A stretch of 64,000 nt of DNA from Nitrospirota bacterium (GTDB lineage Bacteria; Nitrospirota; UBA9217). The stretch lies in assembly GCA_963740085.1 (NCBI GenBank), contig CAVUCU010000003.1, forward strand, positions 32,001 to 96,000, in the 5' to 3' direction. The notes under the pieces are model-generated. The model was not told where the DNA came from. It searched no databases and saw only the letters and a program-made list of their open reading frames with translations. Made by a program: the position numbers and the translations under genes. Positions 12,815-26,408 of this stretch are shown here, piece by piece. Each line of letters starts with the position of its first letter. Position 1 is the first letter of the stretch.

Positions 12815-12843
12815 TTGACAAAACCGGAGCTTCCCCTTATAAT
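12815..12843 (+). promoter_or_regulatory. consensus sigma70 promoter of the yceD-rpmF-plsX-fab operon
   Basis: TTGACA-17 nt-TATAAT, perfect consensus, ending 38 nt before the yceD ATG. Confidence 0.85.
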
Positions 12844-12881: not shown

Positions 12882-13397
12882 ATGGCCATGAAGATCAACG
12901 ATATACCGCCAGAGGGGCTTACACTGGATCTGAAACAGCAGCTCGACCTATTCGACACGGGAACGGCATCAACGGCTTTTACGGCGATTCTCAGCATCAG
13001 ACCGACGGGCGCCGAAGTCCTCCATATAAAAGGCCGGGTTCAGGCTGACCCGGAACTCGAGTGCAGCCGTTGTCTGAAGGTTTTTCCGTATCATATCGAT
13101 ACGGAACTGGATATAACCCTTGCCCCGGAGAAGGTCCTTGGAACGGCCCCGGAGCATGAACTTGGCCGGTCAGAGCTCGACATGGAGTTCTATCAGGGCG
13201 AGGAGATAGATCCCGTCGAACTCGTAAAAGAGCAGTTGCTGATTTCCGTTCCCATGGTTCCGCTCCACCGTCCCGACTGCAAGGGCCTTTGCCCCGTCTG
13301 CGGAACGGACCTGAACGAAAGGGACTGTGGTTGCAAGAGAGACAGCCTTGGTGATTTCGGGGCATTTTCCGTTTTAAAGGATCTATTGAAAAAATGA
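12882..13397 (+). CDS. yceD: DUF177/YceD family protein
   Basis: ECSRCL, CKGLCPVCGTDLN; directly upstream of rpmF. Confidence 0.9.
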   Translation: MAMKINDIPPEGLTLDLKQQLDLFDTGTASTAFTAILSIRPTGAEVLHIKGRVQADPELECSRCLKVFPYHIDTELDITLAPEKVLGTAPEHELGRSELDMEFYQGEEIDPVELVKEQLLISVPMVPLHRPDCKGLCPVCGTDLNERDCGCKRDSLGDFGAFSVLKDLLKK

Positions 13398-13471: not shown

Positions 13472-13654
13472 ATGGCAAATCCAAAACACAAGACATCCAA
13501 GTCCCGCAGGGACAAGAGGCGCACTCACAAGCACCTCAAGGCCCCGAATCTCATGGCCTGTCCGCAATGCCAGGAAGTGAAGCAGCCCCATCACGCCTGC
13601 CTATCCTGCGGCACCTACAACGGCCGCGAGATCGCAACTGTTCAGCAGATATAA
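13472..13654 (+). CDS. rpmF: 50S ribosomal protein L32
   Basis: MANPKHKTSKSRRDKRR, CPQC...PHHAC..CG.Y.GR. Confidence 0.97.
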   Translation: MANPKHKTSKSRRDKRRTHKHLKAPNLMACPQCQEVKQPHHACLSCGTYNGREIATVQQI

Positions 13655-13734: not shown

Positions 13735-14748
13735 ATGAAGATCGCTGTTGATGCCATGGGAGGGGACAATGCGCCTCATGCCATCGTCGCCGGAGCCGTT
13801 CAGGCGGCGAAGGAATACGGTATCGGCATCATCGTGGTGGGCATTGAACAAGTTATTCAAGCGGAACTGAAAAAGCACCCCCTTTCACAATCACTGCCGA
13901 TAGAGATACGGAACGCCACCGAGGTGGTGGACATGCTCGACTCTCCGGTCACGGTATTCCGGAGAAAGAAAGACTCTTCGATCCGGGTGGCTAATGAGCT
14001 TGTCAAGAGCGGAGAAGCGGTGGCCGTTATCAGCGCCGGACATACCGGAGCGGCCATGGCCACGTCGCTCTTTGTCCTGGGAAACCTCGAGGGGATCGAG
14101 CGACCGGCTATCGCCACCTTTATGCCGACGATCAAGGGAACGTCCATCATCCTCGATATGGGCGCGAACGTGGACTGCAAACCCAATCACCTTCTTCAGT
14201 TCGCCGTTATGGGTGAGGTCTACGCAAAGTATCTGTTGAAGGTCCCCAGTCCCCGTGTGGGTCTCCTGTCCATCGGCGAAGAAGAGACAAAGGGGAACGA
14301 ACTGACCAAGGAGGCCTTCAAGCTCCTGACCGAGACCTCGCTCAATTTCATCGGCAATGTCGAGGGACGCGACGTCACGTCCGGCAACGCGGATGTCATC
14401 GTCTGCGACGGTTTTGTCGGAAACGTAGTGCTCAAAGTCTCCGAGTCCGTCGCCGAGGCCGTCGGTCTCTTTATTCGCGAGGGTGTCGGCAACAGTATGG
14501 TTCGCAAACTCGGGTATCTCTTGATGAGGCCGGCCTTCCAATATCTCAAACGGCGGACCGATTATGCTGAATACGGCGGCGCGCCGCTCGTCGGCATCAA
14601 TGGCATCAGCATCATCAGCCATGGTCGATCATCCGACCGGGCCATTAAGAATGCCATACGCGTGGCAGCAGAACTCGCGAAGAGCGAGGTCAATAAGCAC
14701 CTGCGCGCGGATATAGAAAAGAATATGGAGCTGACCAGAGCCAAATGA
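13735..14748 (+). CDS. plsX: phosphate acyltransferase PlsX
   Basis: IAVDAMGGD.AP, SAGHTGA, LD.GAN, FIGNVEGRD, DGFVGNVVLK, HGRSS. Confidence 0.96.
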   Translation: MKIAVDAMGGDNAPHAIVAGAVQAAKEYGIGIIVVGIEQVIQAELKKHPLSQSLPIEIRNATEVVDMLDSPVTVFRRKKDSSIRVANELVKSGEAVAVISAGHTGAAMATSLFVLGNLEGIERPAIATFMPTIKGTSIILDMGANVDCKPNHLLQFAVMGEVYAKYLLKVPSPRVGLLSIGEEETKGNELTKEAFKLLTETSLNFIGNVEGRDVTSGNADVIVCDGFVGNVVLKVSESVAEAVGLFIREGVGNSMVRKLGYLLMRPAFQYLKRRTDYAEYGGAPLVGINGISIISHGRSSDRAIKNAIRVAAELAKSEVNKHLRADIEKNMELTRAK

Positions 14749-15725
14749 TTCAAGCGCGCATAACAGGGACCGGGTCGTACGCACCGAAGAAGATCGCCAC
14801 CAATCACGACCTCGAGAAGCTTGTGGACACGAGTGACGCTTGGATTCTCGAACGCACCGGCATCAAGGAACGCAGGATCGCGGAAAAAGGCCAGACCACA
14901 TCCGATCTCGCGTACGAAGCAAGCCGGCGAGCACTCAAAGCCGCCGGACTCGGCGCTGATGATGTGGACCTGATATTGGTTGCGACCATGACGCCGGACA
15001 CGATCCTTCCGTGCACCGGATGCGTGCTTCAGGAGAAGCTCGGGGCCAGGAAAGCGGCGGCATTCGATATCTCCGCGGCCTGCTCAGGATTTATCTACGG
15101 AATGTCCATCGCCGACGCCTTTATCAAGTCCGGGGCCTATAAAACCATTCTCCTTGTAGGGGCGGAGATCCTTTCGCGGTTTACCGACTGGGAGGACCGC
15201 GCGACCTGCGTCCTGTTCGGTGACGGGGCCGGAGCAATCGTGATCCAGCGGCACACGGGCAAGCGCGGTATTCTTTCGAGTCACCTTCATTCGGACGGGA
15301 CCCTCGGGGATTTGATCAAGGTACCTGCCGGAGGCGCCTCGCACCCGTCATCGCACGAAACCATCCGCAAGCGAATGCACTTCATCAAAATGAAGGGCAA
15401 TGAAACGTTCAAGGCCGCGGTTCGGGCGCTGGAGGGAGTGGTTCAGGAGGCACTGGAGCACAATAAGATAAAACCCGAGGAGATCGACTTCCTCGTCCCG
15501 CACCAGGCCAATTTAAGGATCATTCAGGCCATGGCACAGCGCCTGAACATGCCGATGGAAAAGGTCGTGCTCACGCTTCCGAAATACGGGAATACCTCCG
15601 CGGCCTCCATCCCGATGGCGCTTGACGAGGCTGTCCGTGACGGCAGGATCAAGGAAAATCATCTTCTTTTGTTCGAAGCATTCGGCGGTGGACTCACCTG
15701 GGCATCTGCCCTGGTACGGTGGTAA
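14745..15725 (+). CDS. fabH: 3-oxoacyl-ACP synthase III
   Basis: AACSGF, LFGDGAGA, PHQAN.RI, GNTSAAS, FGGGLTW. Confidence 0.96.
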   Translation: MIQARITGTGSYAPKKIATNHDLEKLVDTSDAWILERTGIKERRIAEKGQTTSDLAYEASRRALKAAGLGADDVDLILVATMTPDTILPCTGCVLQEKLGARKAAAFDISAACSGFIYGMSIADAFIKSGAYKTILLVGAEILSRFTDWEDRATCVLFGDGAGAIVIQRHTGKRGILSSHLHSDGTLGDLIKVPAGGASHPSSHETIRKRMHFIKMKGNETFKAAVRALEGVVQEALEHNKIKPEEIDFLVPHQANLRIIQAMAQRLNMPMEKVVLTLPKYGNTSAASIPMALDEAVRDGRIKENHLLLFEAFGGGLTWASALVRW

Positions 15726-15731
15726 AGAATC

Positions 15732-15834
15732 ATTGGAAATTGCAAATTGGAGATTGGAAAGTGTTCGTTGACATGCTTTTCTCGTTCCGGGTTGCAATTT
15801 AAAATTTCCAATTCTCGATCTTAAATTTCCAATT
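15732..15834. repeat. AT-rich heptamer-built inverted repeat
   Basis: TTGGAAA/TTGCAAA/TTGGAGA arm and complementary TTTCCAA-type arm; same family as 6920-7001. Confidence 0.7.
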
Positions 15835-15853
15835 AATGTTTTTGGAGGATTCA

Positions 15854-17011
15854 ATGGATTACCTGCTGACAGAGGAACAAATCATGATACGCGATCTCGC
15901 ACGGCAGATCGCCGTGGAAAAGATCGTGCCCGTGCGCGCCGAGCTCGATGAGCATAACAAATTCCCCACTGATATCATGAAGGCCATGGCCCAGGCGGAC
16001 CTCTTCGGGATCTATATCCCCGAGGAATATGGCGGCCTTGGGAAAAAGAGCCTCGATCTCTACATCGCCATCGAAGAGATCTCCAAGGCATGTCTTGGCG
16101 TATCCACGTGCTATGCCGCCAATGCCCTTGGCTCCTATCCGATCCTCCTCTACGGCAGCGACGCGCAGAAGAAAAAATACCTTCCCAACATCGCATCGGG
16201 CAAGGATTTCGTGGCGTTCGGCCTTACCGAGGCAAACGCCGGCAGCGATGCCAGCGGCATCCAGACGACTGCAAAACTTGAAGGCAACGAATACGTGCTG
16301 AACGGCACCAAGCAGTGGATCACGAACGGCGGCGAGGCACGGGTATACACCGTCATCGCCATCACGGACAAGTCCAAGGGCGCCCGCGGCGCTTCTGCCT
16401 TCATCGTGGAAAAGGACACTCCGGGCTTCACCTTCGGCAAGAAAGAGAACAAGATGGGCATCCGGGCATCCTCCACCACCGAGCTCATTTTTAACAACTG
16501 CCGCATCCCCAGGGAAAACCTCATCGCCAGGGAAGGCCTGGGCTTCATCGTGGCCATGAAGACCCTCGACAGCTCGCGCGCAGGCGTGGGCGCCCAGGGT
16601 GTGGGCGTCGCGCAGGGCGCGATCGACGAATGCATCAAGTTCGCCAAGGGCAGGGTCCAGTTCGGCCAGCCCATCACCTCGTTCCAGGCGATCCAGCATA
16701 TGCTTGCGGACATGCAGACCCAGACCGAGGCGGCCCGCGCCCTTGTCTATTCCGCGGCCCGCATGATGGACAGCGGAGCAAAGGACTTCTCCCGGGCGTC
16801 AGCCATGGCGAAGCTCTTCGCTACCGACACGGCCATGAAAGTCACCATTGATGCGGTTCAGGTCATGGGCGGTTCGGGCTACATGAAGGAATACCCCGTT
16901 GAGAAGATGATGCGCGACGCAAAGATCCTCCAGATCTACGAGGGGACCAACCAGGTCCAGCGCAACGTCATTGCCCTCGATATGATCAGGGAAGCGACGA
17001 GACAGAAATAA
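15854..17011 (+). CDS. acyl-CoA dehydrogenase (butyryl-CoA dehydrogenase-like)
   Basis: FGLTEANAGSDA, LNGTKQWITNG, KMGIRAS, R.QFG.PI..FQAIQ, IYEGTNQ; GGAGG SD before ATG 15854. Confidence 0.93.
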   Translation: MDYLLTEEQIMIRDLARQIAVEKIVPVRAELDEHNKFPTDIMKAMAQADLFGIYIPEEYGGLGKKSLDLYIAIEEISKACLGVSTCYAANALGSYPILLYGSDAQKKKYLPNIASGKDFVAFGLTEANAGSDASGIQTTAKLEGNEYVLNGTKQWITNGGEARVYTVIAITDKSKGARGASAFIVEKDTPGFTFGKKENKMGIRASSTTELIFNNCRIPRENLIAREGLGFIVAMKTLDSSRAGVGAQGVGVAQGAIDECIKFAKGRVQFGQPITSFQAIQHMLADMQTQTEAARALVYSAARMMDSGAKDFSRASAMAKLFATDTAMKVTIDAVQVMGGSGYMKEYPVEKMMRDAKILQIYEGTNQVQRNVIALDMIREATRQK

Positions 17012-17040
17012 GCGGAGCACGAGGACAAAACACTCATTAA

Positions 17041-17095
17041 ACCACAAAGGCACGAAGGCACAAAGGACTGCACCATGCCTTCGTGCCTTTGTGGT
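17041..17095. repeat. perfect 20-bp inverted repeat
   Basis: ACCACAAAGGCACGAAGGCA ... TGCCTTCGTGCCTTTGTGGT between the ACAD gene and etfB. Confidence 0.85.
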
Positions 17096-17110
17096 AAAAG
17101 GATCGGATAC

Positions 17111-17896
17111 ATGCACATCATTGTCTTGATAAAACAGGTCCCCGACACATCGGAAGTCAAGATCAACCGGGAGACCAATACGCTCATTCGCGACGGGGTA
17201 CCGAGCATCATCAATCCCTTTGACATGTTTGCCATTGAAGAGGCTCTTCGCCTGCGCGAGCAGCACGGCGGCAAGGTTACCGCCGTGACCATGGGCCCGC
17301 CTCAGGCGGCAGACTCGCTCAAAGAGGCCGTTGCCATGGGTGTGGACGACGTCGTGTTGTTCTCGGACCGTGCCTTTGCGGGAGCCGATACCTGGGCGAC
17401 ATCCTATACACTCTCTCAGGGGATCAAGAAGATCGGCGCTTTCGACCTCATCATCGCGGGGAAGCAGGCTATCGACGGTGACACGGCCCAGGTCGGTCCC
17501 GAAACAGCGGAGATGCTCGGCATCCCCTTCATCGCCTATGTGCGAAAAATAGAAAAGGTGGAAAATTCTACGCTGGTGGCCGAGCGCATGATGGATGAAG
17601 GATACGATGTTGTCGAGACGTCGCTCCCTGCGCTCATCACGGTCGTGAAAGAGATCAACCAGCCGCGCCTGCCGTCGCTCAAGGGAAAGATGAAGGCCAA
17701 AGGTCTCAAGGTCGCTTCGTGGACCGCGGCGGACATCGGCGCGGACCAGGACCTGTGCGGGCTCAGGGGTTCCCCCACCAAGGTCGTCCGGATATTCCCG
17801 CCCGCGCCGCGTGGACAGCGGGAGATCCTTTCGGGCAGCATGGAAGAGCAGGTTACCACGGTGTTGAAGAAGCTGAAAGAACAGGCGTTGATATAA
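17111..17896 (+). CDS. etfB: electron transfer flavoprotein beta subunit
   Basis: IKQVPDT, INPFD..A.EEA, DRAFAGADTWATS, GKQAIDGDTAQVGP, GL.GSPT.V. Confidence 0.95.
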   Translation: MHIIVLIKQVPDTSEVKINRETNTLIRDGVPSIINPFDMFAIEEALRLREQHGGKVTAVTMGPPQAADSLKEAVAMGVDDVVLFSDRAFAGADTWATSYTLSQGIKKIGAFDLIIAGKQAIDGDTAQVGPETAEMLGIPFIAYVRKIEKVENSTLVAERMMDEGYDVVETSLPALITVVKEINQPRLPSLKGKMKAKGLKVASWTAADIGADQDLCGLRGSPTKVVRIFPPAPRGQREILSGSMEEQVTTVLKKLKEQALI

Positions 17897-18139
17897 ACAC
17901 AGGGGACAGGGGTCAGATCAAACTGGAAAAAACTTTTGACACGGATTTACACGGATAAAATTCGGACAACAGCGGAATTTTTCTCTTATGGAGTTTTTAT
18001 CCATCTGGTGAAAGCTCAAGAGAAGCATAATTCTTTTTCTTCCGTTTTTATCATATTTTAATCCGCCTCTTCAGTGTCTAAATGCTTGTTTCTCTCTCCT
18101 GACTACTGGCTTTTGACTCCCGATCGTAAGGAGCTTCAC

Positions 18140-19330
18140 ATGGCTGTAAAGGTCATATCTGATAAATGCACCGGATGCGAGACTTGCGTATCCACGTGCC
18201 CGTTCGGCGCTATTGAGATGCGCGACGGCAAGGCGTTCATTACCGAGGCCTGCACCATGTGCGGCGCCTGCGTCGAGGTCTGCGAATTCAAAGCCATCGA
18301 AAAGACGGAAGAGGTTGCCGGCCCGGCTGCCGACCTCTCGGCCTACAAGGGTGTTTGGGTCTTCGCTGAACAGCACAAAGGCAGTATTGCCGGCGTTGCC
18401 CTTGAACTCCTTGGAGAAGGCAGGAAGCTTGCTGATAAAAAGAATGCCAAGCTCGCTGCTGTTTTCCTCGGGCACGGCATCAAAGACACGGCACAGGAAC
18501 TCATTGCCTTCGGCGCAGACATTGTCTACGTAGCAGACGATCCAACGCTCAGGGATTTTAATGATGACTCCTATGCCGCGGTCCTGACATCCCTCGTGAA
18601 ACAGCACAAACCCGAGATACTCCTGGCGGGCGCAACAGCGATCGGCCGCTCCTTTTTCCCCAAGGTAGCCTCTTCACTCTATGCCGGCCTTACCGCCGAC
18701 TGTACCGTTCTCGATATCGACGCTGAGACCGGCCACCTTCACCAGACCCGTCCGGCGTTCGGCGGAAACATCATGGCCACGATCGTCACACCAAACCACC
18801 GTCCCCAAATGGCAACGGTAAGGCATAAGGTGATGAAACCCGCCCCGCGCGACGACGCACGGACCGGCGAGATCATCGACGTCACGTTGAACGGGTCCGA
18901 AACTCTTCGCACCAGGGTCATCAAGACCGTGGAAGAACTGGGCGAGACCGTCAATATTTGTGAAGCGGACATCATCGTAGCGGGCGGCCGGGGCCTGGGC
19001 AGCGCCAAGAACTTCCACCTGCTGGAGGAACTGGCAAAAGCGCTGGGCGGCGCGGTTGCGGCAACGAGGGGAGCTGTCGATGAAGGATGGATCCCCTACT
19101 CCCACCAGGTGGGCCAGACGGGAAAGACGGTCTGTCCAAAGCTGTACATCGCCTGCGGCATCTCAGGCGCTATCCAGCATATTGCAGGGATGCAGTCATC
19201 GGACGTCATTGTAGCGATCAACAAGGACCCCGATGCGCCTATCTTCAGCGTCGCGACCTATGGCATTGTCGGCGATGTGCATGAAGTGCTTCCGATCATG
19301 ATCAAGAAGATCAGGGAAATGCGGGGCTGA
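18140..19330 (+). CDS. etfA: electron transfer flavoprotein alpha subunit with N-terminal 2[4Fe-4S] ferredoxin domain
   Basis: [12 protein letters not shown] and [11 protein letters not shown]; [40 protein letters not shown]. Confidence 0.95.
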
Positions 19331-19345
19331 GGGCAAAAATCTTTT

Positions 19346-19447
19346 TCTCGCAGAGGCGCAGAGTTCACCGAGAATAACCTAGAAATAATCCGGGCTAAAA
19401 TCAAGTTGCTGATTTAACTCCGCGTCCCCTGCGTGCTCCGCGAGAGA
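19346..19447. repeat. CGCAGAG-type intergenic inverted repeat
   Basis: TCTCGCAGAGGCGCAGAG ... CTCCGCGTCCCCTGCGTGCTCCGCGAGAGA. Confidence 0.55.
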
Positions 19448-19491
19448 CGCTTTATGGTTTTGTCTTATAATTTTTTGAGGTTTATACTTTT

Positions 19492-20424
19492 ATGAAAATC
19501 GCCTTCATCTTTCCCGGCCAGGGCTCGCAGTACCTTGGAATGACAAAGGAGTTCAGTGAGACTTTTGCCGAATCAAAGGAAGTCTTCGAGGCCGCAAGCA
19601 CGGTGCTCGGCTACGATCTCCTCCAGCTCTGTCTGAACGGACCGGTCGAGAAGCTGAATCTTACCGAGTACACCCAGCCCGCACTATTGAGCGCGAGCAT
19701 CGCCATTCTGCAGCCGCTGGTGAGAAGAGGATTGCAGGCTTCTGCTGCAGCCGGCCACAGCCTCGGTGAGTACACCGCCATAACCGCGGCAGGCGGGTTC
19801 GAACTCAAGGACGCCGTCATGCTGGTGCAAAAGCGCGGTCGGTTCATGCAGGAGGCCGTACCGGAAGGAACCGGGCTCATGGCGGCGATCCTCGGCATGG
19901 ACCGGCAGGACGTAGAAAAAACTTGCCTTGAAGCGGCCAAAAATGGTATAGTTGCCCCTGCAAATTACAACTCTCCGGGTCAGATCGTTATCGCCGGCGA
20001 GAAAAAGGCAGTGGAAAAGGCCATGGAGCTTGCCAGGACGGCCGGGGCAAAAAAAGTGATCCCCCTCTCCGTGAGCGTGCCTTCACACTGTGCAATGATG
20101 AAGCAGGCCGGGGCCCGGCTTGCGCAGGAACTCGAACGGGTGACGATCCATGATCTGGACATCCCGATCGTGAATAACGCGGATGCGAAGTTTCTCCGGA
20201 ACGCTGCGGAGCTCGTACAGTCGCTCGTCAGACAGATCAGTTCCCCGCTCTACTGGGAAGATTCTATCAAGCGCATGGCCGCAGAGGGGTACGACACCTT
20301 CATCGAGATCGGTCCCGGCAAGGTGCTTTCCGGCCTCGTAAAACGCATTGCGAAGGATGTGAAGGTTCTGAACATCGAAGACCAGAAAAGCATGAGCGAC
20401 GCGCTCAACGCGCTGGGAATGTAA
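19492..20424 (+). CDS. fabD: malonyl-CoA-ACP transacylase
   Basis: FPGQGSQ, TQPAL, GHSLGEY, AN.NSPGQ.V, EIGPGKVL. Confidence 0.96.
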   Translation: MKIAFIFPGQGSQYLGMTKEFSETFAESKEVFEAASTVLGYDLLQLCLNGPVEKLNLTEYTQPALLSASIAILQPLVRRGLQASAAAGHSLGEYTAITAAGGFELKDAVMLVQKRGRFMQEAVPEGTGLMAAILGMDRQDVEKTCLEAAKNGIVAPANYNSPGQIVIAGEKKAVEKAMELARTAGAKKVIPLSVSVPSHCAMMKQAGARLAQELERVTIHDLDIPIVNNADAKFLRNAAELVQSLVRQISSPLYWEDSIKRMAAEGYDTFIEIGPGKVLSGLVKRIAKDVKVLNIEDQKSMSDALNALGM

Positions 20425-20526
20425 GAACAGGGTTCATAGGGTTCAAGGGTTCAAGGGTCATCAGAAACAAGGTTCACTGTTCATGTTCCAGTGTTCAGTT
20501 CAGTCAGGTTCGAAAGGAGCAGTCTG

Positions 20527-21267
20527 ATGAGTTTGAACGGAAAGATAGCGCTTGTCACCGGAGCGGCACAGGGGATCGGCAGGGACATCGCTCTTGCGCT
20601 CGCGGCAGACGGCGCTGATGTCGCCATCTGCGATGTGAACCTTGATGTTGCTCAGAAGACCGCCGCGGACATCGAAGCACTGGGGTGTAAATCGCTTGCC
20701 ATCAAGACCAACGTTGCCGCGTCCGCCGAGGTCACGGCGATGATCGACCAGGTCGTTGGGAAGCTCGGCAGGATAGACATCCTGGTGAACAACGCCGGCA
20801 TAACCCGCGACGGGCTCATTCTCCGGATGAAGGACGAGGACTGGGACCTGGTCCTGAGCATCAATTTGAAAGGCTCGTTCCTGTGCGCCAAGTCAGCGCT
20901 CAAGTATATGAGCAAACAGCGCAGTGGAACCATCATCAACATCGCCTCGATCGTCGGCGCCATGGGCAATGCCGGGCAGGCGAACTATGTTGCATCCAAG
21001 GCCGGCCTCATCGGCTTGACCAAGACCATCGCACGGGAATATGCGAACCGCGGCATCACGGCAAACGCCGTGGCCCCCGGTTTTATCGATACCGCCATGA
21101 CACGGGCATTGTCTGAGAACGTCAGGGCGGAACTCGCGAAGCAGATCCCCATGGGCAAGCTCGGCACCCCCGAGGATGTGGCAAATGCGGTCCGTTTCCT
21201 TGCTTCACCGTGGGCCGCCTACATTACCGGCCAGGTGATCCATGTAAACGGCGGGATGTACATGTAA
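20527..21267 (+). CDS. fabG: 3-oxoacyl-ACP reductase
   Basis: TGAAQGIG, NNAGITRD, GNAGQANYVASKAG, YITGQV..VNGG. Confidence 0.96.
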   Translation: MSLNGKIALVTGAAQGIGRDIALALAADGADVAICDVNLDVAQKTAADIEALGCKSLAIKTNVAASAEVTAMIDQVVGKLGRIDILVNNAGITRDGLILRMKDEDWDLVLSINLKGSFLCAKSALKYMSKQRSGTIINIASIVGAMGNAGQANYVASKAGLIGLTKTIAREYANRGITANAVAPGFIDTAMTRALSENVRAELAKQIPMGKLGTPEDVANAVRFLASPWAAYITGQVIHVNGGMYM

Positions 21268-21353
21268 TAATACCCGTTTTGAAGGATTCAACGTACACAG
21301 CTCATTGAGACGTACGATGCACAGCGTGAAGAACACAATCAGAGGAGGATGAC

Positions 21354-21590
21354 ATGGCAGATGTGGTGGCAAAAGTTAAAAAGATCATTTCCGAGCAGCT
21401 CGGCGTACCAGAAGCGGATGTAAAGCCCGAGGCGTCGTTCGTGAACGACCTTGGCGCTGATTCACTCGACACCGTGGAGCTCGTGATGGCGCTCGAGGAG
21501 GAATTCGGCGTCGAGATCCCCGATGAAGATGCCGAAAAGATAGCGACCGTGCAAAACGCGATCGACTACATCAAGGCGAAGGCAAAGTAA
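21354..21590 (+). CDS. acpP: acyl carrier protein
   Basis: [20 protein letters not shown]. Confidence 0.98.
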
Positions 21591-21716
21591 AAGTCAGAAA
21601 GCGGGAATACAGACGATCAGGGTTCAGAGAACAGATGAACGATGACTGACTTAAGCTTTTGATTCAGTCCGTCTTCTGTTCTCCCTGGTGTTCTGTCCTC
21701 TGTATTCCAAATTACT

Positions 21717-21780
21717 TCCGAAAGCCAGAAGACCTCTCGCTCAGGCGTACGAGTCGGTTTTTTGGCTTTTCGGATTTCTT
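21717..21780 (+). terminator. long hairpin between acpP and fabF (partial terminator or RNase III substrate)
   Basis: TCCGAAAGCCAGAAGACC pairs with GGTTTTTTGGCTTTTCGGA (G-U pairs, one bulge), followed by TTTCTT. Confidence 0.5.
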
Positions 21781-21908
21781 GCTCCGCCAGCGTCAGCCTC
21801 TACCCTTGTCAGCGGCTAACATCATCATACCGGTTTGTGAAATAACGTCACACCATATCTTCACGGGGGCCTTGTCTCTGAGGGGATCTATACAGGAGGT
21901 ATCGTCGT

Positions 21909-23150
21909 TTGAAAAAAAGAGTCGTCATCACCGGCGTCGGGATGGTCACTCCGGTCGGCCTCGATACTGAAGCAAGCTGGGAAGGCCTGATCAACGGTAA
22001 ATCAGGCATTGGCCCCATCACGCAGTTCAATGACAAGGCCATCCCCACGCAGATCGCGGGTGAGATTCACGGTTTCGCGCCGGAGAAGTACATCGAACCC
22101 AAAGAGATCAAAAAGATGGACCGCTTTATCCATTTTGCGATAGGGGCAAGCCAGATGGCCATGGACATGTCCGGCCTCAAGATAACCCCGGAAAACGCCG
22201 ATCGCGTCGGCGTCATCGTAAGCTCGGGCATGGGCGGTCTTCCGGCCATCGAACGGGTCCATGAGGCATATCGTGAGAAAGGATATCGCCGGATAACGCC
22301 CTTCTTCATTCCCATGTCCATCATCAACGAAGTGGCCGGCCATATTTCCATCCGCTTCGGCGCCAAAGGGCCCAATCTCAGCGTTGTCACCGCATGCTCA
22401 ACAGGCACCCATTCCATCGGCGACGCCTTCAAGTGGATCCAGCGCGGCGATGCTGACGCCATGATCGCCGGCGGCACGGAATCGTGCATCTGCCCGACGG
22501 GCGTGGGCGGGTTCAACGCCATGAAGGCCCTCTCTACCCGGAACGACGAACCGCAGCGCGCAAGCCGTCCCTTTGATGCCGAGCGCGACGGTTTCATCAT
22601 GGGGGAAGGTTCCGGCATAGTGGTCCTCGAGGAAATGGAATTTGCGCTCAAACGCGGCGCCCGCATCTACGCGGAGGTGCTGGGTTACGGCGCCTCGGGC
22701 GATGCCTATCATATAACCTCACCCGCGCCGAACGGCGAGGGGGCTGCGAGGTGCATGGCATTGGCGATCAAGGACGCGGGGATCGACCGGAAAGAACTGG
22801 GCTATATCAACGCGCACGGCACCTCCACCAAGTACGGCGACGAGCTCGAGAGCATTGCCATCAAGACCGTGTTCGGCGATACTGCCTATAAAATACCGGT
22901 AAGCTCCACAAAATCGATGACCGGCCATCTGCTCGGCGCTGCCGGCGGTGTTGAGGCCGTCATCTCCGTGCTTGCGCTGGACCGCGGTGTCCTTCCGCCC
23001 ACGATCAACCTTGAGAATCCCGATCCTGAGTGCGATCTGGATTATATCCCGCACACGGCCAGAAAGGTGCAGGTGGACGTAGCCATGTCCAACTCATTCG
23101 GTTTCGGCGGCACGAACGCCTGCCTGGTCTTCCGCAGATTCCGAAAATAA
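21909..23150 (+). CDS. fabF: 3-oxoacyl-ACP synthase II
   Basis: [48 protein letters not shown]. Confidence 0.96.
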
Positions 23151-23151
23151 G

Positions 23152-23850
23152 ATGCCTCCCCTTTCGGACATCCAGCAGCGAATCGGCTATACATTCAAGG
23201 ACACGGAGCTCCTCGAACGCGGGCTCACCCACAAGTCCTATGCGAACGAGTGCCGGGTCCCCTATCACAATGAACGGATGGAGTTCCTCGGCGACGCCGT
23301 CCTCGGTCTCGTCATAAGCGAATATCTGATGAAGGCCTTCCCTGAATCCACTGAAGGCGACCTCTCGAGGCTCAGGGCGGCAGTCGTGAGCGAACCCGCC
23401 CTCGCCGCCGTTTCCCGCGAGATCGGGCTCGGCAGCTATCTTCTGCTCGGAAAAGGGGAAGATCAAACAGGCGGAAGGAACAAGGATTCGCTCCTTGCCG
23501 ACTGTCTTGAGGCACTCATTGCGGCCGTATATCTCGATGCGGGCAAGGATGCAGCGGAGTCGCTCGTTATCCGCCTTTTTGAAGAGGTGATCAAGAAGAC
23601 CAGCACCTCCGGCGGATCGCTTGATTATAAGACGGAGTTCCAGGAGCGCTGCCAGGAGCAGCTCAAACAGCTTCCGGAATACCGCATTGTTTCCGAGACC
23701 GGCCCTGATCATCAGAAGCAGTTCGAGATGGAAGTATGGATCAAGGGAAATCTTGCCGGCCGGGGCAGAGGAAAGAGCAAAAAGGAGGCGGAGCAACGTG
23801 CGGCCAAGGAAGCCCTGGAAAGACTTTCTGAGAAATCGAACCCTGCATAA
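23152..23850 (+). CDS. rnc: ribonuclease III
   Basis: NERMEFLGDAVL signature, D..EA.IAAVYLD, dsRBD (YKT..QE, GPDH, G.SKKEAEQ.AA). Confidence 0.97.
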   Translation: MPPLSDIQQRIGYTFKDTELLERGLTHKSYANECRVPYHNERMEFLGDAVLGLVISEYLMKAFPESTEGDLSRLRAAVVSEPALAAVSREIGLGSYLLLGKGEDQTGGRNKDSLLADCLEALIAAVYLDAGKDAAESLVIRLFEEVIKKTSTSGGSLDYKTEFQERCQEQLKQLPEYRIVSETGPDHQKQFEMEVWIKGNLAGRGRGKSKKEAEQRAAKEALERLSEKSNPA

Positions 23851-24062
23851 GCCTACAGAGAGCAGTTCAGCCACATAAAGTACAAATAAATCAATCAGCA
23901 CTTTGGTAAAAAACTTCACCAAACAGGTGATTTTTCTTTTTGGCGTCAAGATGCTGTTTCTCCTCTGTGATTTTTGAGCCTTCAGTGGCCAACTGCCGTT
24001 TTTATCATAAAATCAGGAACAACCGCGCCAACCCCGATGTTCTCGCAGAATATCTACCCTTG

Positions 24063-24081
24063 AATATGCAAATTGCATATT
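24063..24081. promoter_or_regulatory. operator-like palindrome
   Basis: AATATGCAA-A-TTGCATATT perfect inverted repeat; extra half-site TTGCATATT at 24110-24118. Confidence 0.45.
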
Positions 24082-24176
24082 GGTCCGACTAATTCTAATT
24101 TTCCACATATTGCATATTAGTCAGCAATTGAATTGCAATGAATTCCACCCCTTACCTTAAGTTTTTTCAATTCATC

Positions 24177-24206
24177 TTGACCAATTCATATTGTTTATGC
24201 TACCGT
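24177..24206 (+). promoter_or_regulatory. candidate cassette promoter (Pc-like)
   Basis: TTGACC-18 nt-TACCGT with TGn extension, just upstream of the first cassette boundary. Confidence 0.35.
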
Positions 24207-24210
24207 ATCC

Positions 24211-24234
24211 CGTCCCTATAATAACTTGTTATAC
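24211..24234 (+). mobile_element. attI-like integron attachment site / first cassette boundary
   Basis: CGTCCCTATAATAACTTGTTATAC resembles the attI1 end (CGCCCTAAAACAAAGTTRRRY); GTTATA is complementary to TATAAC in the next attC. Confidence 0.5.
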
Positions 24235-24243
24235 CCTTAAATT

Positions 24244-25005
24244 ATGAAGGACGAAGAAAATATATTTACACGCAAACTTGAGGTCTTCCGCACTGAGATT
24301 GAATCGGCCATTCAATTTTTTTATGCCCATCGTGCAATGAATGGAGTACTGGCCAAAGACAAATACACACTTGAGATTGTTAATCGAACCCCGCTATTTT
24401 GGGTCACTACTACGGGTGCCCTTCATACTGCTTTTTTCATTACATTAGGGCGCATTTTCGATCAAGACTCAAATCACAATATCGACAAGATTCTCCGCAC
24501 TGCGCAAGAACACACTATAATCTTTTCTAAAGAAGCATTAGAGCGAAGAAAACGTGCAGGAAGTGCAAATGCAGCTGAGTGGATTAATGAATACATGAAG
24601 AGTGTCTATGTTCCAAGCGCTGTGGATTTTCGTAGATTAAGAAAGTATGTCGCCAAATATCGAAAAACATATGAAACTGTTTATAGAGACATCCGAAACA
24701 AAGTAATTGCCCACAAACAGCTGTCTAACGTAGATGACATTCATGCACTGTACGCTAAGACAAATATTGCCGACATGCAAAAATTGCTCATCTTTTTGAA
24801 CAAGCTTTATCATGCGCTCTGGCAGCTTTACCACAATGGGAATAAGCCCGTATTGCGACAGATGAAGTATTCTGCTAAAAGAATGATAAGAGCAGAATTA
24901 CCTAAATGGCAAAGCCACCATGTTCAGGAGCGAATAGTGGCCGATACCGTAAATTTCTTAAAACTGCTTTCGAATATACCGAAAGAACAATTGGGCCGAG
25001 ATTAA
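24244..25005 (+). CDS. HEPN-domain protein, AbiU2-like (putative RNase)
   Basis: Helical-looking protein with ITLGRIFD and RNKVIAH (Rx5H HEPN motif); AT-rich relative to flanks. Confidence 0.65.
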   Translation: MKDEENIFTRKLEVFRTEIESAIQFFYAHRAMNGVLAKDKYTLEIVNRTPLFWVTTTGALHTAFFITLGRIFDQDSNHNIDKILRTAQEHTIIFSKEALERRKRAGSANAAEWINEYMKSVYVPSAVDFRRLRKYVAKYRKTYETVYRDIRNKVIAHKQLSNVDDIHALYAKTNIADMQKLLIFLNKLYHALWQLYHNGNKPVLRQMKYSAKRMIRAELPKWQSHHVQERIVADTVNFLKLLSNIPKEQLGRD

Positions 25006-25011
25006 ATCGCT

Positions 25012-25287
25012 ATGCAAAAGATGATGTCGATGTTCATCGTAATACTTCCTGGAATCGTCGGGGTGATCCTTCGCCTACGACATTTCCGTGAGATTCCCGC
25101 CTGGCTGTTGTCATGCACGATAATCCCTATATTTATTCTCGTTGATGAATTCCTTCTCCTTTACCATGGCGGCGGTGCCTCAATGTGGCCCATCGCCATT
25201 GCTTTTGGAACTTTTTACGGGTCCATGACAGGCGGTTTTGGCGTAGCGATTGCGTCATACTATCTCAAAAAGAAAAAGCTAAACTAG
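25012..25287 (+). CDS. small membrane protein (about 3 TM helices)
   Basis: Hydrophobic 91-aa ORF, GGGASMWPIA, basic C-terminus; ends just before an attC. Confidence 0.7.
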   Translation: MQKMMSMFIVILPGIVGVILRLRHFREIPAWLLSCTIIPIFILVDEFLLLYHGGGASMWPIAIAFGTFYGSMTGGFGVAIASYYLKKKKLN

Positions 25288-25301
25288 ATAAACCGAGCTG
25301 A

Positions 25302-25360
25302 ATATAACCTGCGCCTCGACAGCGACGCGCCAAAGACGGCGCGTCAGGCGCGCGTTAGAA
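25302..25360 (+). mobile_element. attC site (59 bp)
   Basis: R'' ATATAAC, GCGCCTCGAC / GTCAGGCGC arms with one extra C, inner GACGCGCC/GGCGCGTC, R' GTTAGAA. Confidence 0.9.
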
Positions 25361-25378
25361 TCATTATGGAGGTGAAAT

Positions 25379-25714
25379 GTGCCATCTTTAGTCATACATA
25401 CCCCGGATTCCCAATTAGGTCGCGAAGGCACAAAGAGCTTCGAAGAGACTTTTAAATCAGGTGTCGGAAGTGCTTACGCTCTTAACAATAAAATATATCA
25501 ACAAATACATCTTGGCTGTAAGGTTGTGTTGCTATGCAAAAAAAGAAGATTACGGGCCGAGGGCCAACTCGTTCGGCTTGAACCTGCCACAAATGAGGGC
25601 AGACCATGGGTTACCGGGAATCATATCCAGAGGTATAACGTGCTTGTAAAAAACTTCGATATGGTCCCATATACATCCGAAGCACTTAACCGCAACGGGG
25701 TTGCAGTTATCTGA
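25379..25714 (+). CDS. hypothetical cassette protein
   Basis: GGAGG SD + GTG just after attC; 111 aa; no recognised family. Confidence 0.7.
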   Translation: MPSLVIHTPDSQLGREGTKSFEETFKSGVGSAYALNNKIYQQIHLGCKVVLLCKKRRLRAEGQLVRLEPATNEGRPWVTGNHIQRYNVLVKNFDMVPYTSEALNRNGVAVI

Positions 25715-25719
25715 CCAAT

Positions 25720-25783
25720 TGATAATAAGGCGATGCGCCTGACACGGCAAAATGACGCTATTTGTGCGAGCTTTACGTTGGTC
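25720..25783 (+). mobile_element. eroded attC-like site
   Basis: TGATAAT...AAGGCGATGCGC / GTGCGAGCTTT...GTTGGTC; right size and position but AAC triplet lost and pairing poor. Confidence 0.4.
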
Positions 25784-25850
25784 TTCTGTTTAAAGGCTGT
25801 TAATAACTCCGTTCAGTGAGAGGGACAAGAACGTCACTCAAGGAGATCTT

Positions 25851-26408
25851 ATGAGAAGGGTTGTTTTTGCGATCAATATTACCACTGACGGGTACTGCAA
25901 CCACACGGACATGATTGCCGACGACGCGGTGCACGAGTACTTCACCAGGCTGCTGCGCAATGCGAATCTCCTCCTCTTCGGCCGGAATACATATCAACTC
26001 ATGGTACCCTATTGGCCCGAAGTCGCCAAAAACCAATCTGAGAATGAAGCAACCAATGAGTTCGCTCGCGTGTTCGACTCTCTCAACAAGATCGTATTCT
26101 CCACGACATTGAAACAGGTTGAAGGAAAGAATACGAGAATCGTGCGTGCTAACCTTGCGGAAGAAGTGCTCGCGCTGAAGCAGCAGCCTGGAAAAGACAT
26201 TAACATAGGCAGTTTGAGCATTGCGTCCCAGCTTTCGGAGCGCGGTTTGATTGACGAGTATCGTTTCGTGGTTCATCCGGTTGTTGCCGGAAAAGGACCG
26301 CGGTTATTCGAAACCGTGAAGCCGCAGGACAGGCTTCGACTCGATTTTATTGGTTTGGAAACCTTTCAATCCGGCGTCGTTGCCCTTCATTACAGAAAGC
26401 ATACGTGA
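25851..26408 (+). CDS. dihydrofolate reductase / RibD C-terminal domain protein
   Basis: [46 protein letters not shown]. Confidence 0.88.

Follow-up and report, generated by a model that had tools for sequence, protein, structure and literature searches.

The genome of a bacterium of the phylum Nitrospirota carries, within its type II fatty acid synthesis (FAS II) operon, genes for an acyl-CoA dehydrogenase-family flavoprotein (ACAD) and for the electron transfer flavoprotein subunits EtfB and EtfA, the latter of which is fused to an N-terminal ferredoxin domain. This trio is likely to be the FAS II enoyl-ACP reductase of the organism, in which case it is a non-homologous replacement of FabI, FabK or FabL. 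Enoyl reduction by the trio is probably linked to ferredoxin in a way so far undescribed, and full-text literature searches turned up no account of an enzyme of this kind. The substrate would be ACP-bound rather than CoA-bound, and chains from C4 to C16-18 would be accepted.

Organization of the gene cluster

The window, i.e., the 64,000 nucleotides that were analysed (contig CAVUCU010000003.1, positions 32,001 to 96,000), contains a block of co-oriented genes in the order yceD-rpmF-plsX-fabH-ACAD-etfB-(2x[4Fe-4S])etfA-fabD-fabG-acpP-fabF-rnc. The part from plsX to rnc had been proposed in a preliminary description and is borne out by Pfam and NCBIfam matches. The span studied here, 14745-20424, begins with fabH and ends with fabD. 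The features are as follows:

12815-12843, + strand: sigma-70-type promoter-like site TTGACA-17-TATAAT upstream of yceD, 12/12 matches
12882-13397, + strand: yceD (YceD, PF02620; Pfam), opens the conserved block
13472-13654, + strand: rpmF, ribosomal protein L32 (Pfam)
13735-14748, + strand: plsX, phosphate acyltransferase (TIGR00182, 387 bits, over cut-off)
14745-15725, + strand: fabH, beta-ketoacyl-ACP synthase III (TIGR00747, 453 bits, over cut-off)
15854-17011, + strand: ACAD, three-domain acyl-CoA dehydrogenase-family flavoprotein, 385 amino acids (ATG at 15854; ORF opens at 15836), proposed as the catalytic subunit
17111-17896, + strand: etfB, small Etf subunit (Pfam and NCBIfam; ORF opens at 17075)
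17897-18139, + strand: AT-rich non-coding etfB-etfA spacer, 243 nt, in which AAGGAG precedes the etfA start codon (ATG) by 8 nt
18140-18337, + strand: ferredoxin domain at the N-terminus of EtfA, in which CxxCxxCxxxC occurs twice (Pfam Fer4 twice), presumably for two [4Fe-4S] clusters
18140-19330, + strand: fdx-etfA, large Etf subunit, ferredoxin followed by ETF and ETF_alpha domains (ORF opens at 18074)
19460-19488: internal promoter-like site, 9/12 matches
19492-20424, + strand: fabD, malonyl-CoA:ACP transacylase (TIGR00128, 357 bits, over cut-off)
20491-21267, + strand: fabG, 3-oxoacyl-ACP reductase (TIGR01830, 335 bits, over cut-off)
21354-21590, + strand: acpP, acyl carrier protein (NCBIfam)
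21909-23150, + strand: fabF, beta-ketoacyl-ACP synthase II (TIGR03150, 665 bits, over cut-off)
23152-23850, + strand: rnc, RNase III (NCBIfam), closes the block
23916-24010, + strand: pair of terminator-like hairpins with T runs; this strand has none earlier, back to 14469

The position of yceD upstream of rpmF-plsX is also kept in relatives, and the etfB-etfA spacer measures about 85 nt in a close relative (L076). The window thus holds fabH, fabD, fabG, acpP and fabF, and fabZ is found elsewhere in the genome (G000:C4:716783-717202). Genes for thiolase, 3-hydroxyacyl-CoA dehydrogenase or crotonase were not found in or beside the cluster by Pfam and NCBIfam annotation. The two additional cysteine motifs of EtfA, already pointed out in the preliminary description, are present in the translation and coincide with the two Fer4 matches. 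It was further proposed that all genes lie behind one consensus promoter. The perfect site in front of yceD agrees with this proposal, and the + strand has no terminator-like site between 14469 and 23916; however, the reading as a single transcript is weakened by the internal promoter-like site and by the gaps between etfB and etfA (243 nt), between etfA and fabD (161 nt) and between acpP and fabF (318 nt).

The three proteins

ACAD looks like an ordinary Bcd-type enzyme without an extra domain, and its best PDB match is Bcd from the Bcd-EtfAB complex of C. difficile (5ol2_C, 419 bits). All 22 fab-linked orthologues compared share the catalytic glutamate of the YEGT motif, and ACAD is at least as conserved as FabH, FabF and FabD of the same clusters, with identities of 86-99% within the family and 69-71% in family f3. 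The best PDB match of EtfA is CarE (6fah_A, 427 bits), which aligns over the full length including the ferredoxin domain. Among solved structures, EtfB comes closest to CarD, a subunit of the bifurcating caffeyl-CoA reductase, and all five PDB matches of EtfB at E <= 1e-30 stem from bifurcating or confurcating Etf complexes. The top NCBIfam models of all three proteins are the acryloyl-CoA reductase subunits AcrC, AcrB and AcrA of Clostridium propionicum, all of which score below their equivalog cut-offs (479 vs. 640, 244 vs. 475 and 367 vs. 600). The nearest characterised relatives of ACAD use short CoA thioesters; an enoyl-ACP reductase needs to accept ACP-bound chains of C4 to C16-18. A sister subclade of the same ACAD family, which comes from Bacillota and makes up 10 rows of the tree, is not fab-linked, so the ACAD family is not exclusively a fatty acid synthesis enzyme; at three of these loci, ACAD lies beside genes for NfnAB-like, FolD, RACo and corrinoid proteins.

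Conservation of the operon slot

Synteny was compared across 20 regions (minimum query coverage 50%, E <= 1e-10). The order plsX-fabH-ACAD-etfB-etfA-fabD is shared by the window, 15 regions of family f1 and two of family f3. In the same block, the sister genomes G019, G028 and G024 have the order fabH-FabK-fabD, with FabK over the TIGR03151 cut-off (484-501 bits), and G147 of family f16 has a 267-amino-acid SDR in the fabH-fabD slot, whose best NCBIfam match is FabL. The slot is empty in five relatives that possess FabI (G022, G023, G025, G026 and G027), where fabH directly adjoins fabD. A fab gene lies no more than 9 kb away at 38 of the best 80 ACAD loci (66-94% identity), and the linked loci come from records labelled with about nine phyla. 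The orders include fabH-ACAD-etfBA-fabD, plsX-ACAD-etfBA-fabG, fabG-acpP-fabF-ACAD-etfBA, fabF-rnc-ACAD-etfBA and plsX-ACAD-fabG. The fab linkage is kept across relatives, also where genes have been rearranged; in two genomes with an orphan ACAD (G021 and G030), etfB-etfA-fabD are still contiguous elsewhere.

Distribution of the trio and of known enoyl reductases

The trio and FabI or bona fide FabK are mutually exclusive in two phyla. Among 151 Nitrospirota genomes (at least 85% complete; ACAD at E <= 1e-150, FabI at E <= 1e-50, FabK over cut-off), ACAD occurs in 79, FabI in 54 and FabK in four, with no overlap. An ACAD orthologue of at least 70% identity is present in 22 of 31 relatives, and none of these 22 has FabI or an over-cut-off FabK; eight of the nine relatives lacking the orthologue have FabI or FabK, and the ninth genome is only 68% complete. 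The phylum that includes G067 (record title: Omnitrophota) was sampled with 91 genomes, of which 41 carry ACAD and 35 carry FabI; FabI is found in none of the 41 ACAD genomes vs. 35 of the 50 others. The 32 fab-linked genomes of a 50-genome set contain neither FabI nor an over-cut-off FabK, nor FabV in a search that had no positive control. NMO-family matches at E <= 1e-20 are missing altogether from 12 of these 32 genomes; sub-cut-off NMO proteins score 260-358 bits in four and 140-250 bits in six, and G012 has one at 258 bits; such proteins could be FabKs. The split between ACAD and FabI follows deep lineages, and it thus represents few independent events; a confounding effect of anaerobic versus aerobic lifestyle is possible for the distribution, but not for the argument from the slot. 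The conserved synteny, the slot shared with FabK and a FabL-like protein, and the exclusion of FabI and FabK favour the first of two functions suggested in the preliminary description, an unrecognised and possibly bifurcating enoyl-ACP reductase. Under the second, in which the trio would provide FabH with acyl-CoA primers, none of these patterns is expected, and the cluster contains no gene for thiolase, 3-hydroxyacyl-CoA dehydrogenase or crotonase.

Other candidate enoyl reductases and alternative explanations

That fabI, fabK, fabL and fabV are absent, as noted before for the window, holds there and mostly also for the genome (98.5% complete), but a sub-cut-off FabK-like gene lies elsewhere. 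FabI models are absent from the 25 best NCBIfam matches of each of five non-FabG SDRs, and the best FabL score in the genome is 180 bits vs. a cut-off of 328. FabV (PF12241) has no match in the genome, a blank that is weak because the control genomes did not give a match either. Nothing in the genome exceeds the TIGR03151 cut-off of 453. Two NMO-family genes were found: a homologue of FabX that spans its full length (219 bits against 7e1q) and is present in most relatives, and the FabK-like gene (198 + 50 bits), which is frameshifted in this assembly. The frameshift is absent from one low-depth contig of another run, and hence the gene may be intact. In the other eight genomes of the genus (G001-G008), the only NMO match at E <= 1e-20 is FabX-like, with about 97-108 bits; the FabK-like gene is sporadic in the genus. 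Reductases of the FabMG or FabL2 type, which are FabG-like SDRs, are possible enoyl reductases.

These genes bear on a rather improbable explanation, in which the trio acts on enoyl-CoA or acyl-CoA, e.g., converting crotonyl-CoA to butyryl-CoA for FabH primers or in unrelated CoA metabolism, and the true enoyl reductase is the sub-cut-off FabK-like NMO, a FabG-like SDR or an unknown protein. The similarity of ACAD to CoA-dependent Bcd enzymes, the unlinked Bacillota relatives, the possibly intact FabK-like gene and the four further SDRs are in line with such a role. However, the FabK-like gene is sporadic, 12 fab-linked genomes lack any NMO match, the other SDRs favour FabG over FabL models, and primer supply predicts neither the exclusion of FabI and FabK nor the occupation of the FabK slot. 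Even less probable is an oxidative function as an acyl-ACP dehydrogenase, which would form a trans-2 double bond, serving anaerobic unsaturated fatty acid synthesis or lipid remodelling, and pass electrons to Etf. Dehydrogenation is the default activity of ACADs, the superfamily includes members that act on carrier-protein-bound substrates (their NCBIfam models MbtN and RedW are among the weak matches), and FabX of H. pylori is a precedent for backward dehydrogenation in FAS II (PMC8626469); yet the scores for MbtN and RedW fall far short of the cut-offs (78 vs. 700 and 259 vs. 650), a full-length FabX homologue is already encoded in these genomes, and an oxidative trio would leave them without an enoyl reductase. 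The bifurcating-type Etf and the complementarity with FabI and FabK also fit the reductive direction. Unrelated genes do enter operons, and gaps of 128-243 nt flank the trio, but the chance insertion of a Bcd-Etf cassette into a housekeeping operon is disfavoured and very improbable: the linkage recurs in at least five gene orders, in records labelled with about nine phyla, it persists as etfBA-fabD where ACAD has moved off, and it is paralleled by the absence of FabI and FabK.

Proposed mechanism

If the trio is the enoyl-ACP reductase, electron bifurcation is slightly more likely than not. As in Bcd-EtfAB and CarCDE, NADH would reduce a bifurcating FAD held by EtfB. One electron would reach an external ferredoxin by an uphill path over the two [4Fe-4S] clusters in the ferredoxin domain of EtfA, a relay function described in PMC9232219, and the second would move downhill via the shuttle FAD of EtfA to the FAD of ACAD. 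There, trans-2-enoyl-ACP would be reduced to acyl-ACP with the YEGT glutamate as acid/base, so that each elongation round would amount to enoyl-ACP + 2 NADH + Fd(ox) -> acyl-ACP + 2 NAD+ + Fd(red).

The strongest competitor, although clearly the less likely one, is an enoyl-ACP reductase without bifurcation, which would use NADH alone, like the acryloyl-CoA reductase complex with its CoA substrate, or reduced ferredoxin via the EtfA domain. In PMC9232219, EtfAB of C. propionicum is called non-bifurcating though highly related to bifurcating ones, and since the closest NCBIfam models are the Acr proteins of this organism, similarity alone is no proof of bifurcation; moreover, the ferredoxin domain could pass electrons either way. 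Against this stand the sub-cut-off Acr scores, CarD and CarE as the nearest structures by sequence, the origin of all five EtfB matches, and the dedicated two-cluster domain, which is found in CarE, a subunit of a bifurcating enzyme (PMC9232219).

Comparison with known systems

SDR-type reductases (FabI, FabL and FabV) catalyse the pathway step proposed for the trio and are distributed in a complementary manner, but they share no homology with it, contain neither flavin nor iron-sulfur clusters and dissipate all of the free energy that the step releases. FabK, the FMN-dependent enoyl-ACP reductase II (TIGR03151), is likewise a flavoprotein, occupies the identical fabH-fabD position in sister Nitrospirota and is mutually exclusive with the trio; in contrast to the latter, it is a single subunit with the unrelated NMO TIM barrel fold, which uses NADH only and is not coupled to ferredoxin. 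FabX, the H. pylori decanoyl-ACP dehydrogenase/isomerase (7E1Q), also is a flavin and [4Fe-4S] enzyme that acts on acyl-ACP in FAS II and has a homologue in this genome, but it is an NMO-family protein, acts oxidatively in the making of unsaturated fatty acids and is encoded outside this locus.

Genes for Bcd-EtfAB sit with butyrate-pathway genes. The C. difficile (5OL2) and A. fermentans (4L1F, 4KPU) complexes provide the best PDB matches of ACAD (419 and 397 bits) and share the catalytic glutamate motif and an Etf of the bifurcating type; they differ in that R17 and R28 (numbering starts at the ATG at 15854), which are conserved in fab-linked ACADs, are V/A and A/V in the two Bcd structures, and in that their EtfA has no ferredoxin domain (PMC9232219). 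AcrABC (NF042970, NF042971 and NF042972) provides the top NCBIfam models of all three subunits, but differs by the sub-cut-off scores and, according to PMC9232219, by a non-bifurcating EtfAB in that organism. CarCDE of Acetobacterium woodii (PDB 6FAH) resembles the trio in its three subunits, in the two-[4Fe-4S] ferredoxin domain at the N-terminus of the EtfA-like subunit and in sequence (EtfA vs. CarE, 427 bits over the full length; EtfB vs. CarD, 267 bits; ACAD vs. CarC, 317 bits). CarC, however, takes aromatic enoyl-CoA in anaerobic respiration, whereas the ACAD of the trio is nearer to Bcd than to CarC, and its genes lie inside a FAS II operon, in place of FabK or FabI.

Gene content of the fatty acid synthesis block

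The enoyl-ACP reductase (ENR) drives each elongation cycle of type II fatty acid synthesis (FAS II) onward and is a classic antibiotic target. To our knowledge, four protein families catalyze this step: the SDR-type reductases FabI, FabL and FabV, and the NMO-type flavoprotein FabK (TIGR03151). In the window, the slot between fabH and fabD is taken by the genes of an acyl-CoA-dehydrogenase-like flavoprotein (ACAD), EtfB and a ferredoxin-EtfA, and this trio is probably the ENR of FAS II. The block comprises the following features, the genes being assigned by Pfam and NCBIfam scans:

12815-12843, perfect TTGACA-17-TATAAT site
12882-13397, + strand, yceD
13472-13654, + strand, rpmF
13735-14748, + strand, plsX
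14745-15725, + strand, fabH
15854-17011, + strand, ACAD, three-domain acyl-CoA dehydrogenase
17111-17896, + strand, etfB
18140-19330, + strand, etfA
after etfA to the block end at 23850, + strand, fabD, fabG, acpP, fabF and rnc

The scans bear out the gene order on the + strand that the preliminary description had read from the sequence, and the consensus promoter it had placed ahead of the block is a perfect site. The two extra CxxCxxCxxxC motifs it had noticed in EtfA are present in the translation, within the N-terminal ferredoxin domain. A search of the + strand from 14469 to 23916 gave no terminator-like site; the gaps within the block measure 243, 161 and 318 nt, and transcription of the whole block as a single transcript is plausible. 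Among the sequencing runs listed as containing the sequence, 20 are of DNA type and none is of RNA. No Rfam family matched the window at the gathering threshold, the etfB-etfA spacer included. This spacer (17897-18139) is AT-rich and 243 nt long, and measures about 85 nt in L076, the locus of a 94%-identical relative. A low-GC island (24001-26000, GC 0.43) directly follows rnc; a gene for a HEPN AbiU2-like abortive-infection protein (24244-25005; PF18734, E 3e-22) lies in it, with small ORFs without a Pfam match coming next.

Synteny and the enoyl reductase slot

The preliminary description had suggested checking whether the synteny is conserved, and it is so among close and distant relatives. 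An ACAD orthologue of at least 70% identity is found in 22 of 31 relatives, and in 18 of 20 fetched regions (16 of genome family f1, two of family f3) it lies within the plsX-fabH...fabD block; for these regions, tblastn matches with less than 50% query coverage or an E-value above 1e-10 were left out. Some of the block-bearing regions end at a contig edge, one has no fabH match, and two regions carry an acetyl-CoA-synthetase-like gene 3' of etfA. In the genomes G021 and G030, the ACAD is an orphan, and etfB-etfA-fabD are contiguous elsewhere in both.

The best 80 ACAD loci, taken from one genome per species, share 66-94% identity with the window protein. For this set and for the orphan-ACAD and slot regions, tblastn matches with less than 50% query coverage or an E-value above 1e-8 were left out; for the region of G147, matches were kept from 30% coverage. 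Both fab and Etf genes lie beside the ACAD in 31 of the 80 loci, fab genes only in seven, Etf genes only in 14 and neither in 28. Many of the 80 loci are short contigs. Counting as fab-linked an ACAD that has a fab match (43% identity or more) no farther than 9 kb away, 38 of these best 80 loci qualify, with record labels from about nine phyla. The orders seen are fabH-ACAD-etfBA-fabD, plsX-ACAD-etfBA-fabG, fabG-acpP-fabF-ACAD-etfBA, fabF-rnc-ACAD-etfBA and plsX-ACAD-fabG. The linkage thus persists though rearranged, which strongly indicates a shared function.

About 20 of the loci with neither neighbor have a common hpt-PTPS-pmbA-ACAD arrangement. In many Thermodesulfovibrionales genomes (L083-L113, about 20 loci, and also L072 and L073), an orphan ACAD follows genes for a phosphoribosyltransferase, a 6-pyruvoyl-tetrahydropterin synthase and PmbA/TldD, and in two such genomes etfB-etfA is still joined to fabD elsewhere. 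Two loci labelled Omnitrophota and Planctomycetia, L134 and L136, have the order fabG-acpP-fabF-ACAD-etfB-X-etfA, in which X is a conserved ORF of 272-282 amino acids (L134:12040-12888 and its match in L136) without a Pfam match; it may encode an additional subunit.

In Nitrospirota relatives that lack the ACAD, the slot holds another gene or none. It contains FabK in G019, G028 and G024, where the order is yceD-rpmF-plsX-fabH-FabK-fabD-fabG-acpP-fabF, the FabK scores are 484-501 bits (above the cut-off) and the ACAD is absent. In G147 of family f16, the slot encodes a 267-amino-acid SDR (L168:7122-7925) whose top NCBIfam match is FabL with 158 bits (cut-off 328), FabI reaching 106 bits; it is likely a divergent SDR-type ENR of this family. 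Five Nitrospirota relatives with FabI elsewhere have an empty slot, fabH being followed directly by fabD. The trio therefore sits where known or likely enoyl reductases sit in sister lineages.

Distribution against FabI and FabK

An anti-correlation with known enoyl reductases, which the preliminary description had also raised, is seen in two phyla. Among 151 Nitrospirota genomes of at least 85% completeness, 79 have the ACAD, 54 FabI and four an over-cut-off FabK; FabI or over-cut-off FabK occurs in none of the 79 ACAD genomes vs 57 of the 72 others. The ACAD families (f1, f3, f4, f11-f15, f17, f19 and f21-f24) are devoid of FabI, and the FabI families (f5-f10 and f18) are devoid of the ACAD. 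The ten genomes of family f16 have no ACAD, FabI or FabK, and the FabL-like SDR is present in all four that were checked. Five genomes fall outside this pattern: G012, G184, G201, G104 and one of family f20. The phylum of G067, a genome with a record title of Omnitrophota, was covered by 91 genomes; the ACAD is found in 41, FabI in 35, neither in 15 and both in none, so that FabI occurs in 0 of 41 ACAD genomes vs 35 of 50 others; over-cut-off FabK was found in none of the 91. Fisher tests on both tables give extreme values, which overstate the case because the lineages are not independent.

Across the best 80 loci, 50 genomes, chosen for longer loci, were searched for FabI, FabK and FabV. FabI was present in three of the 50, all Bacillota in which the ACAD-Etf genes are not fab-linked. 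Among the 32 fab-linked genomes, NMO proteins score 260-358 bits in four and 140-250 bits in six, and 12 show no NMO match whatever at an E-value of at most 1e-20. Two caveats temper the complementary distribution: a few genomes carry FabK-like genes that score below the cut-off, and lineages share ancestry.

Reciprocal decay in G012, with a broken ACAD beside an intact FabK-like gene, was considered and rejected, as the apparent break is a 10-N scaffold gap; G012 belongs with the ACAD genomes and additionally encodes a FabK-like protein of 258 bits.

Other enoyl reductase candidates in the source genome

The preliminary description had noted that fabI, fabK, fabL and fabV are missing from the window. 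Throughout the source genome (G000, 98.5% complete), this absence holds for FabI and for over-cut-off FabK and FabL; a sub-threshold FabK-like gene is present, and the blank for FabV is weak. Six SDRs of the adh_short_C2 type are encoded, among them the window's FabG. For each of the remaining five, the top model is a FabG or pteridine-reductase-type one, and the 25 best NCBIfam matches include no FabI model; accessions of the FabI models were derived from E. coli FabI. The top FabL score, 180 bits, stays below the cut-off of 328, and nothing exceeds the FabK cut-off of 453. FabV (PF12241) gave no match in this genome, the 50 locus genomes and ten further genomes, a search that had no positive control. 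A fabZ gene is present.

Another candidate for the role is the FabK-like NMO gene at G000:C5:335705-336878 (L025). It scores 198 + 50 bits on the FabK model and is split in this assembly by a frameshift of one base just past a run of six A (A6). In one low-depth contig of run X1, one base fewer at position 348 of L025 would restore the frame, so the gene may be intact, and the frameshift stems either from faulty assembly or from a difference between strains. In G012, an intact gene of this type reaches 258 bits. The gene is sporadic, the eight other genomes of the genus showing a FabX-like match only at an E-value of at most 1e-20. A second NMO, the Cys-rich protein of 363 amino acids at G000:C5:105944-107032 (L024), was tried as the missing ENR and rejected. 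FabX is a dehydrogenase/isomerase for unsaturated fatty acids and not an ENR. The L024 protein is homologous over its full length to H. pylori FabX, with 219 bits to 7e1q, one of the PDB codes given for FabX in PMC8626469; moreover, G019 has this type of protein alongside a true FabK, and G022 alongside FabI. Most Nitrospirota relatives, including carriers of FabK or FabI, encode a FabX-type protein, which suggests that the phylum makes unsaturated fatty acids anaerobically by a FabX-type route.

Two further regions of the genome contain related genes. The region G000:C5:472046-474525 contains a second FabG-like SDR (TIGR01830, 314 bits, above the cut-off) and, at a distance of about 1.3 kb, FabZ-like fragments spread across three frames with one internal TGA; this may be a second fab-like cluster, decayed or mis-assembled. 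At G000:C1:739591-745505, about 4 kb separate a distant Etf alpha gene (35% identity) from an ACAD in an open frame of about 600 amino acids (40% identity). The two probably form a separate beta-oxidation-type system, and the fab-linked trio is thus not the sole ACAD/Etf pair of the genome.

ACAD family tree and the Bacillota branch

A tree of 79 rows was built from 74 loci, the window and four outgroups; six of the 80 loci, for which ORF picking yielded no full-length ACAD, were left out. The ACADs, 75 in all, group in a single clade apart from the four outgroups, which are distant paralogues (support 100). A subclade of ten Bacillota ACADs that are not fab-linked adjoins fab-linked Omnitrophota and Planctomycetota sequences, and the ACAD family is therefore not used for FAS only. 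At three of these Bacillota loci, L120, L127 and L146 (66-69% identity), close relatives of the trio follow genes for NfnAB-like proteins, FolD, RACo and corrinoid proteins rather than fab genes, and one of these three genomes, G057, has FabI. This neighborhood suggests that the enzyme family has another role there, linked to C1 or methyl-group metabolism.

R17 and R28 are the only residues that separate 35 fab-linked ACAD rows from the ten Bacillota rows, a contrast with one subclade; both also set the fab-linked ACADs apart from two Bcd structures. The mean net charge is -0.3 in fab-linked ACADs vs -4.4 in the Bacillota subclade. The two arginines and the less negative charge offer a tentative lead towards binding of the acidic ACP.

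Proposed function and significance

Gene content, homology, linkage, the slot and the distribution, as observed here, argue for the trio as the ENR of FAS II; the ACP-bound substrate, the range of chain lengths and bifurcation are inferred. On the most likely reading, the three subunits work like Bcd-EtfAB or CarCDE: NADH would reduce the FAD of EtfB, one electron would pass via the [4Fe-4S] clusters of EtfA to ferredoxin, and the other would travel via the FAD of EtfA to that of the ACAD, which would reduce enoyl-ACP. More tentatively, the trio may represent a fifth, non-homologous class of bacterial ENRs, a bifurcating ACAD-EtfAB that yields reduced ferredoxin from each round of elongation. 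It appears to be widespread in anaerobic lineages, namely Thermodesulfovibrionia-type Nitrospirota and Omnitrophota, and genomes labelled Margulisiibacteriota, Saganbacteria, Rokuibacteriota, Deltaproteobacteria, Thermodesulfobacteriota and Actinomycetota.

An ACAD-Etf ENR would be a further, unrelated solution to enoyl reduction and would account for the apparent absence of ENR genes in whole anaerobic lineages. Bifurcation would link the making of lipids with the pool of low-potential ferredoxin and conserve the energy, about 300 mV for each reduction, that FabI or FabK dissipates; such a saving matters for how slow-growing anaerobes balance their energy. Current annotations call the genes acyl-CoA dehydrogenase and Etf, so that metabolic reconstructions based on metagenome-assembled genomes may wrongly infer beta-oxidation or butyrate metabolism and a gap in lipid synthesis. 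A full-text literature search, with most subscription journals outside its scope, returned no description of an ACAD/Etf enoyl-ACP reductase.

Comparison with known systems

The proteins of the trio match neither PF13561, PF12241 and PF03060 nor the FabI, FabL and FabK models; judged by these models, the trio is a member of no known ENR family. The ACAD exceeds the Pfam cut-offs for PF02771, PF02770 and PF00441, and its catalytic glutamate motif YEGT (Y362, E363, G364, T365) is invariant in 22 of 22 sequences. It scores below the cut-offs of models for carrier-protein-dependent ACADs (MbtN 78 vs 700, RedW 259 vs 650, PigA 247 vs 500). The AcrABC models of the C. propionicum acryloyl-CoA reductase are the top NCBIfam matches for the trio, but all three subunits stay under the equivalog cut-offs (479 vs 640, 244 vs 475 and 367 vs 600) and thus fall outside these equivalogs. 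PMC9232219 describes the closely related EtfAB of C. propionicum as non-bifurcating, and states that N-terminal ferredoxin domains of this kind carry electrons between the bifurcating FAD and an external ferredoxin.

The top PDB match of the ACAD is 5ol2_C of Bcd-EtfAB. EtfA contains ETF, ETF_alpha and two Fer4 domains in Pfam and aligns over its full length with CarE of the bifurcating caffeyl-CoA reductase (23-413 vs 1-391), ferredoxin domain included. EtfB aligns best with CarD, with which it shares the stretch DGDTAQVG, presumably a marker of bifurcating Etfs, whose EtfB has an NADH site and a second FAD in place of AMP; its five PDB matches at an E-value of at most 1e-30 are all subunits of bifurcating or confurcating complexes, with no classical ETF beta among them. 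The proteins of the trio are of a known kind, that of the Bcd/Car-type ACAD-Etf complexes, and it is their use as an enoyl reductase of FAS II that would be new.
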